A DNA stretch of 64,000 nt, from the NCBI GenBank assembly GCA_963848295.1, contig CAWKDB010000002.1, positions 928,001 to 992,000 of the forward strand, in the 5' to 3' direction. Source of the DNA: an uncultured delta proteobacterium. Lineage in GTDB: Bacteria; Myxococcota_A; Polyangia; Haliangiales; Haliangiaceae. Each line of letters starts with the position of its first letter. Position 1 is the stretch's first letter. The notes beneath the pieces are model-generated. The model searched no databases. It was not told the origin of the DNA and saw only the letters and a list, made by a program, of their open reading frames with translations. This document shows, in pieces, positions 1,718 through 5,515 of the stretch. Both the position numbers and the translations under genes were made by a program.

Positions 1718-1900
1718 CTATCGCCTCCGCGCTTCGTTGATCTCGCGGTTGACCCGCGCGATCTCGCGTAACCACACGTGGCGTTCTTCGTGCTCCATAT
1801 CGAGGATGTCGTCGATCGACCAGTGAAAGTGGTAAGCGATGTAAGCGACTTCTTGGTACAGCTGTTCGCGCGGATAAGTAGCAACCGCCGCCAGGGTCAC
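1718..1900 (-). CDS. DUF6760-like small eCIS protein (possibly the -1 frame extension of the upstream chaperone)
   Basis: YPREQLYQEVAYIAYHFHWSIDDILDMEHEERHVW motif; GTGA overlap with the upstream stop. Confidence 0.8.
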   Translation of the reverse strand: MTLAAVATYPREQLYQEVAYIAYHFHWSIDDILDMEHEERHVWLREIARVNREINEARRR

Positions 1901-2304
1901 CCCGGGCCAGACTGGCCACTACCTCCCTCCTCGGTGATCAAACCACCGGTAACCATATCGACATCCATCTCGGTGCCGCATTTCGGACACGTCACATGGT
2001 GCTTCGGCGCGCCACCCTCTTCGTTGATCTTGCGATAGAACTCCTGCAAGTACGCGAGGTCGGTGGAAAACAGATTCTCGATCATGTCGACCGAGATTCG
2101 CGACTGCTCTCCGATCTTCACGATCACGCGCGACAACAGCACGATCACGAGGTACGCGCGATTGCTCTGTACCCGGTAGTCTTGCAGCGGCAGGATCTCG
2201 TCCCGCGCGGTCGCGAGCCGCATCACACCATCGCGGTGCACATTGCCTTCCTCGTCCACGTACCCGCGCGGCAACCGAAACGAATACTGAGTCTTGAACG
2301 CCAT
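1897..2304 (-). CDS. eCIS/phage tail assembly chaperone-like protein with C-terminal CPKC
   Basis: F.LPRGYVDEEGNVHRDGVMRLATARDEI...DLAYLQEFY..IN...TCPKCG; lies directly after the tube gene. Confidence 0.8.
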   Translation of the reverse strand: MAFKTQYSFRLPRGYVDEEGNVHRDGVMRLATARDEILPLQDYRVQSNRAYLVIVLLSRVIVKIGEQSRISVDMIENLFSTDLAYLQEFYRKINEEGGAPKHHVTCPKCGTEMDVDMVTGGLITEEGGSGQSGPG

Positions 2305-2320
2305 TGAGCCTGTGACCTTT

Positions 2321-2361
2321 CAAAACGAAACGGGCCGCCCTGGTCTCACCAGAGCAGCCCG
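2321..2361 (-). terminator. Intrinsic terminator/attenuator after the tube gene
   Basis: Minus-strand 14-bp stem CGGGCUGCUCUGGU-GAG-ACCAGGGCGGCCCG with two G-U pairs, followed by UUUCGUUUUG. Confidence 0.75.
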
Positions 2362-2385
2362 AATCCTATACGAAACCTACGCGGT

Positions 2386-3315
2386 TTACGCGTCGTAGGT
2401 GTTGAGATGGAACTCCATCTGCTGGACGTATAGCTCGACCGTGAAGCGCGCGATCTTCTCGGAGTTCGCCTCGTGGTCGTCGTGGCCGAACTTCTTGAAG
2501 CCGACGTTCTTCAGCGTGATCTCGCCGAGCTCGTCGGTCATGTTCGGACCGAGGAACACGATGCGGCCGTGAATCTCGTCGCCCTCGAGGTGGTGGCCAT
2601 CGATGAACCACTTCTTCGCGGCCTCCGCCCACTTCTGGTGGTCGGCCTTCGAGATGCTCAGCTTGAGGTCGGGCACCTTGACGTTCGCCGGGTGGTACGT
2701 GTACTCGCGCGTTCCGCCCACCGGGTCCGGCGCAACCGCGCACTTCCAGGTGAACGAGTCGATCGACGACACGCGGTCACACGGCAGGTGCAGCAGCTCG
2801 ATCTTGAAGTTCGAGCACAGCCACGCTTTCTGCTTCGGGCCGATCTTGCCGCGGATGTCTTCGCCGTTGGCCTTGTGCCACCGCACGATCTCGGGCTGGA
2901 ACTCGATGTCGAAGTACGCGGCGTCTTTGCTCGAGCCGTCGAGCTTCGGCACCGTGACGCTCGTGATCAGCGCTTGCTGGAACTCGAGGCGGGTCTGCGC
3001 CTTGTAGTCGAAGTCCGCGGCCGTGAACGCGCCCGACTTCGTGATGTAGCCCTTCTGGAACGCGGCGTTGATCCACTCGTACATGCCGCGGCCCATGCCG
3101 ATACCGACCGAGGCCTTGCCCGGGGTCCACTTGATGTTGGATACGTGCTTCGGCTGGAAGTTATCGGTCGACAGATCGTGGGTCGCGATGTCGGCTTCCA
3201 TGTGGAGACCGCTGAACTTCTTGAGATAGCCGACGTTGTACGCGGCGCCCGCGCTGTCGACCTCGAGCATGAAGCGTCCGCCGGTATAGCTGCGGTTGCT
3301 GTTGTCTAGAGCCAT
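2386..3315 (-). CDS. Phage/eCIS tail tube protein, apparently two tandem T4 gp19-like domains
   Basis: 309 aa; both halves show a tube-like pattern (RF.LEVD...FSGL..E...W...ITSV.VP.LD; NFKIEL...W...G.I.FL...L.NV...VEL.V); lies directly after the sheath. Confidence 0.75.
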   Translation of the reverse strand: MALDNSNRSYTGGRFMLEVDSAGAAYNVGYLKKFSGLHMEADIATHDLSTDNFQPKHVSNIKWTPGKASVGIGMGRGMYEWINAAFQKGYITKSGAFTAADFDYKAQTRLEFQQALITSVTVPKLDGSSKDAAYFDIEFQPEIVRWHKANGEDIRGKIGPKQKAWLCSNFKIELLHLPCDRVSSIDSFTWKCAVAPDPVGGTREYTYHPANVKVPDLKLSISKADHQKWAEAAKKWFIDGHHLEGDEIHGRIVFLGPNMTDELGEITLKNVGFKKFGHDDHEANSEKIARFTVELYVQQMEFHLNTYDA

Positions 3316-3565
3316 TGTCTATTGTCTCCCGTTGTCTCGTGTCACTTGGTGCCGGCCCGGCACGGAGAACCTCGGCGGCTACAACGCTACGCCACCCACC
3401 TCGCGAAGCCTCGCTCCGCCCCGCCTACCTTGTAATCACCGATAGTCTCCCTGACGTTTCAGGTCTTCCCTTGGCCGTCGGGTCCGCCCACCCGCCGTAT
3501 GCGGATGGGCGCCCGCTTGATTCGTCGCTTTCTACGCCAACCCCGGTGGGTTGCTTCCTAGACCA
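3316..3565 (-). other. Structured intercistronic region between sheath and tube genes
   Basis: Hairpins at 3538-3553, 3485-3511 (11 bp, G-U on the minus strand), 3450-3463 and 3349-3363; carries one arm of a long-range inverted repeat. Confidence 0.5.
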
Positions 3566-4832
3566 CTACTCTTCGACGCCACCGCCGGACGCCATTTGGC
3601 CGACCCGGAAGATGACGAATTCCGCAGGCTTCACCGGCGCGAGGCCGATCTCGCAGACCAGCTGGCCGGCGTCGATCACCTCGGGCGGGTTGGTCTCCTC
3701 GTCGCACTTGACGTAGAACGCCTGCTCGGGCGAGACGCCCATCAGCGCGCCGTTGCGCCACAACAGGGTCAGGAACGACGAGATCGTCCGCTGCACGCGC
3801 TTCCACAGGCGATGGTCGTTGGGCTCGAACACGACCCACTGGGTCGCGCGCTCGATCGACGACTCGACCATGATGAACAGCCGGCGGACGTTGATGTAAC
3901 GCCACGACGGATCGCTGGACAGCGTGCGCGCACCCCAGATGCGGATGCCGCCGTTCATGAACCGGATCGCGTTGATGCCCTTCGGGTTCAACAGATCCTG
4001 CTCGCCCTTGCTCACGTTGTACTTGAGGCCGAGCGCGCCGCGCATGATCTCGTTCGCCGGCGCCTTGTGAACGCCGCGCTCGCTATCGGTGCGCGAGTAC
4101 ACGCCCGCGACGTGGCCCGAGGGCGGCACGAAGATGTTGCCCTTGTCCGGATCGTAGACCTGGATCCACGGGAAGTAGTAGGCGCCGTACTTCGAGTCGC
4201 GTGGCTTCGGCAGCTTGTCGACGCCGCCGGTGATCGTCTCCGGGGAGTCGAGGATCGCGAACCGATCCTTGCGCGTCTCGCAGTGCGAGAGCAGCGCGTC
4301 CTGCACCGCGGGCGAGACTTGGCCCGGCGCCGCGACGATCGCGATCTCGTCGACTTCCTCGAAGCACTTCAAGCCGCTGCGCGCACCGGGACCGCCGTCG
4401 CGGCCGATGTAGAGCGCTTCGCGACCGCCACCGACATGGACCGGAGCCTTGTCGTCCTTCTTGTCACCAGCCGAGGTCGCTTTGACTTCCTTCGCCGTGT
4501 CGGGAGCGCCGACGTTGACGACGAAGCAGCGCGAGCCGCCGTTGTTGAAGAAGCCGTAGACCGCGTGAGCGAGGTGCTCGCTACAGTCCTTGAAGTCACC
4601 GAACGTCTTGACGAACTGCGACCAGTTCGTGATCAAGACGGACTCGTTGAGCGGGCCCTTGGCCGACTCGCCGAGGAAACCGACGGTGTTGGTACCGACG
4701 GCCTCGATGGGTTTATTGCCGCGATCGACTTCTTCGACGTACACGCCTGGGGACAAGTAACTAGTAGCCATGTCGTTCTCTCCTGTGCGGTGTGCCGATG
4801 CCGGTGGTCTTCGCCCGACTATCGGTGATTAC
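3432..4832. repeat. Perfect 16-bp inverted repeat pair flanking the sheath gene (3432-3447 / 4817-4832)
   Basis: GTAATCACCGATAGTC at 3432-3447 is the exact reverse complement of GACTATCGGTGATTAC at 4817-4832. Confidence 0.9.
3566..4771 (-). CDS. eCIS/phage tail sheath protein 1 (compact form)
   Basis: YLSPGVYVEEV, FFNNGG, AYYFPWI, PPSGHVAG, GVHKAPAN, WGART, WRYINVRRL, FEPND, APVKPAEFV. Confidence 0.95.
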   Translation of the reverse strand: MATSYLSPGVYVEEVDRGNKPIEAVGTNTVGFLGESAKGPLNESVLITNWSQFVKTFGDFKDCSEHLAHAVYGFFNNGGSRCFVVNVGAPDTAKEVKATSAGDKKDDKAPVHVGGGREALYIGRDGGPGARSGLKCFEEVDEIAIVAAPGQVSPAVQDALLSHCETRKDRFAILDSPETITGGVDKLPKPRDSKYGAYYFPWIQVYDPDKGNIFVPPSGHVAGVYSRTDSERGVHKAPANEIMRGALGLKYNVSKGEQDLLNPKGINAIRFMNGGIRIWGARTLSSDPSWRYINVRRLFIMVESSIERATQWVVFEPNDHRLWKRVQRTISSFLTLLWRNGALMGVSPEQAFYVKCDEETNPPEVIDAGQLVCEIGLAPVKPAEFVIFRVGQMASGGGVEE

Positions 4833-5515
4833 TTCTTGCCGCCTCCGCCGAGATCGAGTCGGCGTGCGCCAAGAAAAGGGTTGCCGTTCGGGCCGGTTTC
4901 AGAGACCCGCGGATCGATGATGGACTTGTATTCGAGTTGGCGCGATTGGACCCGCTTGAACTCCTCGAGCTTCTCCGGAAGGATCGGCACCGCGGTCCAC
5001 GCCTGGACCGCAGGACGCACCGGTTGGCTGAGGCTGCCCCAGAACCGTGCGAGCGTGCCTTCGTCGAGTCGCGCTGACATCAACACGTTGAGCTTGAAGT
5101 CGTCTTCGAACGACGCGCCCTTGAGCTTGTCGTGCGGCAGCTCGGCGTTCTCCATCACCGTGCGGATGATGAGCCCCATCAGCAGCTGCTCGTCTTCCGG
5201 GGTCTGCGCCCAGCAGGAGATCAAGTAATCGAGCCGGACCCATAGCCGGCGCCGGCGAAAATATTCCTTGAGCGTGCCGTCATCCTGCGGGACCTCGACG
5301 AGCTCGGCCGACGGCGTCGAGTCGTAGCCTTCGGGGTCGATCGACAGCTGATACAGGTAGACCGAAACCGCGGGCAGCTTGCCTTCGATCGCATCCGGCT
5401 TCGGCGCCGACTCCACGATGTGGACGCGCTTGTAGCCGTTGCGCTTGAACTCGTCTTGGAACAGCCGAGACAACGTCTCGGACGTCTCCTTGATGATGTG
5501 ATGCTGTGGCGTCAT
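4829..5515 (-). CDS. DUF4255 / Pvc16-Afp16-like tail terminator protein
   Basis: SVYLYQL...LDYLISCWA...EDEQLLMG...FWGSL..P.RPAV; first gene of the eCIS operon. Confidence 0.85.
   Translation of the reverse strand: MTPQHHIIKETSETLSRLFQDEFKRNGYKRVHIVESAPKPDAIEGKLPAVSVYLYQLSIDPEGYDSTPSAELVEVPQDDGTLKEYFRRRRLWVRLDYLISCWAQTPEDEQLLMGLIIRTVMENAELPHDKLKGASFEDDFKLNVLMSARLDEGTLARFWGSLSQPVRPAVQAWTAVPILPEKLEEFKRVQSRQLEYKSIIDPRVSETGPNGNPFLGARRLDLGGGGKK

Follow-up and report, generated by a model that had tools for sequence, protein, structure and literature searches.

We describe here positions 1718 to 5515 of a 64,000-nucleotide (nt) stretch of contig CAWKDB010000002.1 (the window in what follows), which form the front of a minus-strand operon of a Kofleriaceae-like soil-myxobacterial contractile injection cluster of the eCIS (extracellular contractile injection system) type. 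Within this operon, the gene of a tube-like protein of 309 amino acids (aa) is flanked by a promoter motif and a leader on one side and a terminator on the other, and is therefore likely to be expressed apart from the other parts. From these observations, we hypothesize that the tube gene forms, within the operon, a transcription unit of its own with separate induction and high output, and we consider the model as a whole, which joins this unit to a two-domain tube, a structured leader, a terminator and a frameshift, to be reasonably probable. A preliminary description of this DNA had proposed that five signals together set the subunit ratios at the RNA level. All five are present in the sequence; the spacer structure, the terminator and the slippery site proved to be conserved, and the long-range repeat and the repeats at the ribosome-binding site (RBS) did not. 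The proposal stands in that conserved non-coding signals single out the sheath and tube genes and that the frameshift, judged by comparison, is a translational ratio signal; of the five proposed layers, two are unconserved. Since the strongest signals of the spacer and the terminator are promoter-like, control is likely to be at least as much transcriptional as post-transcriptional, and subunit control looks layered and largely transcriptional. Conservation of the five signals was judged on about 30–50 Kofleriaceae relatives. The elements of the tube unit are, in the direction of transcription:

3533..3558, minus strand: promoter motif of the extracytoplasmic function (ECF) sigma type, GGAAG-N17-CGTA, with a predicted start near 3525 (30/33 loci)
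3353..3514, minus strand: tube-gene leader with a conserved fold, hairpin P1 plus a multi-branch domain (covariation, 47 sequences)
2386..3315, minus strand: 309-aa tube protein with two tandem tube domains (the halves align, HH probability 97.7, E 1.9e-12)
2363..2368, minus strand: TAGGAT, a hexamer that resembles a -10 element and lies against the terminator stem (candidate re-initiation promoter)
2322..2361, minus strand: intrinsic terminator 3' of the tube gene (hairpin 2361-2331 plus T tail)

At the 5' end of the sheath–tube spacer we observed GGAAG-N16/17-[C/G]GTA in 30 of 33 loci, 24 with a gap of 17 nt and six with 16; the three loci without it belong to other families, and the sequence of the gap is itself unconserved. 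The genome from which the window comes contains 24 RGGAAG-N16/17-CGTA sites, 11 of them intergenic, and three of the intergenic sites lie upstream of structural genes of contractile injection systems (CIS), namely the tube gene of the locus and, both unlinked, a two-domain tube paralog and a spike gene. Unlinked tube paralog B is preceded by the motif in 14 of 14 cases, against a background of 59 in 14832 random 330-nt stretches (0.4%). The same is true of the unlinked spike gene in 25 of 25 cases (the best 25 of those found), where the motif stands 33–66 nt before monocistronic genes without any leader. Because the spacing is fixed, the spacer sequence is free and the motif recurs before leaderless unlinked spike genes, it has the signature of a promoter, and the spacer motif looks, likely enough, like one read by an ECF sigma factor. 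Mapped ECF promoters such as GGAAC/GGAAT-N-CGT have this shape, and in bipartite shape and spacing the motif resembles the S. meliloti RpoE1/E2/E4 promoters (GGAA[CT]-N16/17-CGT) described in the accessible part of PMC6180224; it differs from them in having GGAAG at -35 and CGTA at -10. The ECF motif at fixed spacing was found neither before pvc16 nor in Polyangia spacers. A TTGA..-N16/17-TA..AT motif can be seen by eye before pvc16 in several relatives, weakly in the window, and a sigma-70 scan of positions 1-8000 returned one site versus 0.8 expected. The unlinked spike gene (Phage_base_V; G000:C11:104520-105272, L174), with the same promoter motif, is kept in most same-genus genomes. A 1263-aa protein without a Pfam match, a candidate cargo or surface protein, also lies behind an ECF-type motif (G000:C10:2895500-2900900, L175:1436-5224).

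The sheath–tube spacer had been called structured, and this was borne out: its 250 nt fold better than shuffles (z -2.10; 6/200 as good), and the structure is conserved. The leader of about 160 nt comprises P1 and then a domain closed by the 5-bp P2, which encloses a variable hairpin and an imperfect helix of 23 pairs; the apex of this helix ranges in size between about 5 and 80 nt. RNAalifold on 29 leader sequences gave 38 pairs, 15 of them compensatory; in the structure refined on 47 sequences, from which L084 (bad range) and L051, L052, L077, L078, L080 and L110 were left out, 94.8% of cells are paired and 16/39 pairs are compensatory, which beats 500/500 shuffles and all slid controls. A covariance model of the leader finds one match in its own genome, and matches in 58/73 same-genus genomes, 2/47 other-genus genomes of the family and 1/150 other genomes of the phylum, that one being from the same genus. 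Rfam 15 holds no match to it (0 at E up to 5 in 1600-5600). A local 3' hairpin as a conserved alternative fold is unsupported, 71–431 of 500 shuffles scoring as high. The fold ends 37 nt 5' of the start codon, the RBS being left open, and contains no terminator, which disfavours the usual on/off riboswitch; we favour instead a role in stabilising, processing or protein binding, as suggested by the architecture. The spacers of L051, L052 and L110 have the promoter at the same position and, by eye, the same leader architecture in an almost wholly different sequence; of these three the covariance model scores only L052, weakly (E 0.023).

Directly after the tube gene, the terminator that had been proposed there is indeed a GC-rich hairpin with a U run (z -3.53; 0/200 shuffles) and is conserved; its U tail is interrupted in many relatives, and it may leak. 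TAnnnT, often with TG before it, immediately precedes the terminator in 33/33 loci when sought with a pattern that itself favours it (the L054 row being a wrong site) and in 20/34 when the stem is defined independently, most misses reflecting a stem rule that runs into the hexamer. The hexamer is found before 0/38 of the other terminator-like hairpins of the genome. Its simplest reading is a restart promoter inside the terminator, to which we incline somewhat over the alternative of pairing with the U tail.

The product of this unit differs from the eCIS tubes that it matches: those chains are single domains of 140–149 aa, whereas the locus tube has 309 aa and two domains. BLASTP of the two halves returned nothing, and they align by profiles only; two gp19 stretches are also present in the tube paralogs. 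The AlphaFold model (pLDDT 86.6) has full-length Foldseek matches among T5/DT57C, SH-Ab15497 and P74-26 tail proteins, at an identity of 7–9% to T5/P74-26-type tail tubes, and half-length matches among eCIS tubes, with a TM score to target of 0.72–0.78 for each half. A duplicated tube domain leads to trimeric rings in T5 (pb6) and phiCbK, as described in the accessible part of PMC8718954. The locus tube shares the duplication with T5 pb6, phiCbK and P74-26, but those are trimeric tubes of non-contractile siphophage tails, whereas it is encoded with sheaths. In a three-copy model, which scored 0.70 against 0.00 for the best control and whose runs agree in at least 76% of contacts with a pLDDT of at least 78, the N-domain packs against the C-domain of the next copy; the model supports no more than a head-to-tail trimer. 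The mark applied to such models was reached by 20/30 solved pairs and 1/23 single chains, and resemblance to solved rings of the T5 type may account for the pass. The 309-aa protein is predicted from this modelling to form trimeric rings, and its position, flanking signals and GC content at third codon positions (GC3 0.93, the highest of five locus genes) make it likely to be the major tube.

Matches to the 309-aa protein occur in 36/36 same-genus genomes, mostly three in each, and 40 stretches around such matches comprised 35 eCIS loci with the same gene order (some cut by contig ends) and five paralog loci. Two unlinked two-domain paralogs (G000:C10:72019-72903, L057, and C10:1532823-1533722, L056) have no sheath neighbours and are found genus-wide. 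Records from Symbiobacteriaceae, Gaiellaceae, Rokubacteria and Acidobacteriota contain similar proteins of about 300 aa, near which the other locus genes have no match. In Polyangia-type loci and family f3 (L112-L115, L121, L124, L132-L140, L048-L050), two consecutive two-domain tube genes, about 30% alike, stand behind sheath 1. Atlas clusters of 298–307 aa, mostly from Myxococcota, carry the plain gp19 label. In marine Myxococcota eCIS, a gp19 tube gene was the most expressed gene in two metagenome-assembled genomes (PMC11937823); those genes are from other lineages, and the accessible part of that paper gives no mechanism and does not use the word 'tandem'.

Downstream of the terminator, three overlapping features belong to the predicted frameshift:

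1897..2304, minus strand: tail assembly chaperone, 135 aa, G analogue (PHROG 508 E 1.8e-5; Pfam Gp41_Mu weak, E 0.01)
1897..1926, minus strand: predicted -1 frameshift signal (GGAGGT at 1926-1921, 14 nt, C_CCG_GGG at 1906-1900, stop)
1718..1900, minus strand: DUF6760 frame, which likely supplies the C-terminal (T) part to a fusion of 195 aa (Pfam DUF6760 E 1.1e-15)

The slippery site proposed in the chaperone gene, C_CCG_GGG_TGA at 1906-1897, is conserved among relatives. The DUF6760 frame is in the -1 frame in 34/34 loci of a first set, in 55/56 of a second, overlapping set, whose exception (L103) has the break earlier in the chaperone gene, and in 30/30 of a phylum-wide set made up of the best 30 loci from 104 positive genomes of 251. 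In the first set, XXXYYYZ ends at the stop in 34/34 loci (C_CCG_GGG in 31, G_GGG_GGA in three), and DUF6760 has no start codon in 21/34, because GTG becomes GTA where the stop is TAA or TAG. The phylum-wide set has G_GGG_GAA, which is not a strict XXXYYYZ, in 28/30 and XXXYYYZ in 2/30; its open frame lacks a start in only 6/30, starts elsewhere lying mostly far from the junction. GGAGGT stands 14 nt upstream in 31 genus loci, in rare codons (2–4% usage), and the third position is invariant in 7 of the last 9 chaperone codons versus 1/37 four-fold sites in the gene body. The comparative evidence makes it very probable that chaperone and DUF6760 are joined by a -1 frameshift of the lambda G/GT type. 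In lambda, gpG/gpGT is a low-level -1 extension, a 30:1 ratio is needed for tail assembly, and the arrangement is widely conserved in phages (accessible part of PMC5009743); phage-derived chaperone clusters in bacterial genomes shift at 6–7%, and an upstream Shine-Dalgarno (SD) sequence stimulates -1 shifting in dnaX (both in the accessible part of PMC3711429). The locus is like gpG/gpGT in having a tail chaperone, an overlapping -1 frame and a conserved slippery site in the overlap. It differs in being a chromosomal eCIS, in its site, C_CCG_GGG or G_GGG_G(G/A)A, which like that of dnaX has an SD upstream, and in that the chaperone, which follows the tube, is followed by sheath 2 and not by a tape measure. 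DUF6760 itself had no match in the searchable literature.

Three further features around the sheath and the tube start fared differently from one another:

4795..4825, minus strand: hairpin conserved across relatives before the RBS of the sheath gene, with GAAGACCAC as loop consensus (10 pairs, 7 compensatory, 28 sequences)
4817..4832, no strand assigned: upstream arm of a long-range repeat, strain-specific (conservation comparison)
3433..3448, no strand assigned: downstream arm of that repeat, which makes up the 5' strand of the long helix in the leader (conservation comparison)
3302..3337, minus strand: AGACAA repeats over the tube RBS, four copies, strain-specific

The loop of the sheath hairpin is nearly invariant, and a T5+ run follows it in 8/28 loci, the window not among them; as candidate roles we name a 5' stabiliser, a protein site or an attenuator. 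The inverted repeat flanking the sheath is a perfect 16 nt in the window, as had been reported, but is conserved in only one of 28 loci, the window itself, the other 27 having 5–8 nt, as in shuffles. As a conserved control layer it is rejected on that account. Perfect repeats of at least 16 nt occur in 80/659 3.8-kb pieces of the same genome, and 4795-4835 has no second copy there that would mark a dispersed element. Both arms lie in conserved elements that share CCGA/TCGG, which gives the repeat a head start of 5–7 nt, and by this comparison it is a local coincidence between the two elements. The four AGACAA copies are likewise real but private to the window (two or more copies in 1/32 loci), and as regulator sites they are rejected; what is kept across relatives at the tube RBS is an open, unstructured, purine-rich stretch.

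The nested unit that we favour would work as follows. A weak housekeeping promoter would drive pvc16 and the sheath gene, and an ECF sigma factor would start a second transcript near 3525 and also turn on the unlinked spare tube and spike genes. The leader would protect the tube mRNA or be processed from it, and most transcripts would stop at 2322-2361, where the -10 element on the terminator would restart transcription, at a low level, into the chaperone, sheath 2 and baseplate genes. At C_CCG_GGG a few ribosomes would slip by -1, yielding the 195-aa G–T fusion beside the 135-aa chaperone. A ring would be complete with three tube subunits, as against six in solved eCIS tubes.

Several observations weigh against this scheme. 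Orphan tube paralog A has the motif in 0/11 cases by the strict definition (CGTA with a degenerate -35 can be seen by eye), GGAAG-N17-CGTA is not enriched genome-wide relative to other spacings (16 sites versus 9–44), 8 of the 11 intergenic sites precede genes that are not CIS-structural or no called gene, and none of 67 sigma region-4 matches could be identified as the cognate sigma factor. The hexamer lacks a conserved -35 and is able to pair in part with the U tail, and the structure behind the covariation counts was derived from those same related sequences. Polyangia-type loci, which have two tandem two-domain tube genes with a 70-nt spacer and no leader, lack both leader and promoter, and so does the Kofleriaceae locus L091, which has the same gene order and almost no spacer; both elements are therefore dispensable for this kind of machine. 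We stress that transcript starts, ends and levels and the fusion protein are predictions only.

A rather unlikely account of the same signals is one long transcript that is cut and differentially stabilised, in which the sheath hairpin, the leader helix (as an RNase III-like substrate) and the terminator stem would be sites of processing or protection and the promoter-like motifs sites for nucleases or proteins. The long imperfect helix of the leader, with invariant pairs on both strands, the invariant loop of the sheath hairpin and TAnnAT directly 5' of the terminator stem would all fit such processing, but a bipartite motif of fixed spacing before leaderless unlinked spike genes is the signature of a promoter, and the local 3' hairpin that could cap a cut product scores no better than shuffles in the covariation test given above. 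Very improbable, in our view, is a switch in which the long-range repeat pairs across the sheath gene and remodels sheath hairpin and tube leader on read-through RNA. The repeat is a perfect 16 bp with both arms in non-coding elements, and the helix is predicted to form on the read-through RNA of the window (pair probability 0.8–1.0; co-folding gain -16.3 kcal/mol), which speaks against calling it a coincidence; yet the 27 relatives average -5.9 versus -6.1 for non-cognate pairs, the cognate advantage at motif level has p 0.083, and a compensatory pattern is absent.

The role of the two-domain protein can also be read otherwise, as a minor three-fold adaptor ring, like T5 p140, which is such a ring, or as the subunit of sheath-free filaments, with the single-domain gp19 left of the window building the tube. 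We regard this as doubtful. Its appeal is that the top three Foldseek matches are 293–298-aa chains of T5/DT57C tail-tip and baseplate entries, that two unlinked paralogs in each genome, like homologs in other phyla, lie away from any sheath, and that a normal gp19 is present in the locus. Set against this, the 309-aa gene lies directly behind sheath 1 and before the chaperone, with its own promoter motif, leader and terminator and a GC3 of 0.93, and the single-domain gp19 lies towards the CIS_tube and hub genes, a slot that we take to be that of the minor, Afp5-type tube. An extension of the nested unit, which we offer tentatively as less likely than not, is that the three-fold two-domain tubes of Kofleriaceae are swappable: one ECF sigma factor would induce the main tube, the unlinked tubes and the unlinked spike, and the leader would be a regulatory RNA of a new class, sensing one component of the assembly (tube, chaperone or G–T fusion) and tuning tube output to sheath supply. 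The orphan hcp/vgrG islands of type VI secretion are a parallel for such unlinked tube and spike genes.

The remaining genes of the region are:

4829..5515, minus strand: Pvc16-like cap gene, 228 aa (Pfam Pvc16_N E 4.9e-18)
3566..4771, minus strand: sheath 1, 401 aa (Pfam Phage_sheath_1 and 1C)
1..1710, minus strand: sheath 2, extending out of the window and split by one extra base near 1300 in the assembly

The minus-strand order is thus Pvc16-like cap, sheath 1 (89–94% identical across the genus), 309-aa tube-like protein, tail chaperone, DUF6760 and sheath 2. Leftward, the cluster continues beyond the window with a single-domain gp19, a long frame rich in Ala, CIS_tube, hub, spike, gp25, baseplate J, four proteins with FHA domains, an AAA ATPase and eCIS_core, the last two (PF00004 and PF13699, DUF4157) about 22–26 kb left of the window. 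The preliminary description, which had assigned the locus to an eCIS and pointed to the left neighbouring DNA, was right on the assignment, cap, sheath, tube, hub, spike and baseplate genes being clustered; hub, spike, gp25, baseplate J, AAA ATPase and eCIS_core genes do lie in that DNA. No capsid, portal or terminase was found among the subset of open reading frames scanned in the 39 kb. In gene content, the locus resembles Afp, PVC, AlgoCIS and Streptomyces CIS in its cap, two sheaths, tubes, CIS_tube, hub, spike, gp25, baseplate J, AAA ATPase and eCIS_core, and differs from them in the dedicated promoter motif, the leader and the unlinked tube and spike genes sharing the motif. For the S. 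coelicolor eCIS, four promoters are known (accessible part of PMC10020575).

Near 1300, sheath 2 has one extra base relative to three relatives in which it is in frame, and two others have different single indels nearby; the split is likely an assembly error. A 1325-codon Ala/Pro-rich frame between gp19 and CIS_tube (G000:C2:923462-927437) is a possible tape measure. Four FHA-domain genes stand directly behind the baseplate genes, followed by the ATPase, and a Ser/Thr kinase-like gene and a PP2C phosphatase gene, the latter behind an ECF-type promoter motif, lie at the cluster end (the whole set at G000:C2:906213-911705, 895661-900060). By analogy with Fha/PpkA/PppA of type VI secretion, a parallel case of phospho-control, the set may possibly control the injection machine by phosphorylation. 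At 6649-6950 the window contains a 45-nt inverted repeat (98%) around short tandem repeats. BLAST of its arm gives 34 matches in the genome, which often form inverted pairs 160–650 nt apart, like a dispersed element of the miniature inverted-repeat transposable element or repetitive extragenic palindrome kind.

Two genomes flagged as unpublished (G010, G365) are rows in the tallies of 309-aa matches, leader and unlinked spike and may be duplicated among the loci of the second frameshift set; no claim depends on them. Six soil RNA runs contain 6–7% of the words. When four of them were mapped at 80% likeness, all genes were covered by short contigs of relatives, most deeply sheath 1, the tube at about 40–160 and pvc16 and sheath 2 at a low level. 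Coming from mixed organisms and lacking a matched DNA control, these contigs cannot rank genes or show steps, and they were not used as expression evidence.

The searchable literature, to which subscription papers and bioRxiv supplements did not belong, yielded nothing that describes the leader, the shared promoter motif, a chaperone frameshift in an eCIS or a two-domain eCIS tube, and the trimeric tubes in it are all from phage. The accessible part of PMC11506125 holds nothing on the ECF-type motif, and that of 10.64898/2026.08.24.746745 nothing relevant to these features. How hundreds of tube and sheath subunits are matched to few baseplate parts in contractile machines is mostly unstudied, and the locus offers four sharply defined signals that can be tested with reporters. 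The leader, which covaries strongly, is a structured RNA not catalogued so far. DUF6760 gains a probable role, as a frameshifted T domain, across many Myxococcota eCIS loci, in which it is likely misannotated as one of two genes. If true, a two-domain tube of C3 symmetry within a six-start sheath would be a new architecture for contractile systems.

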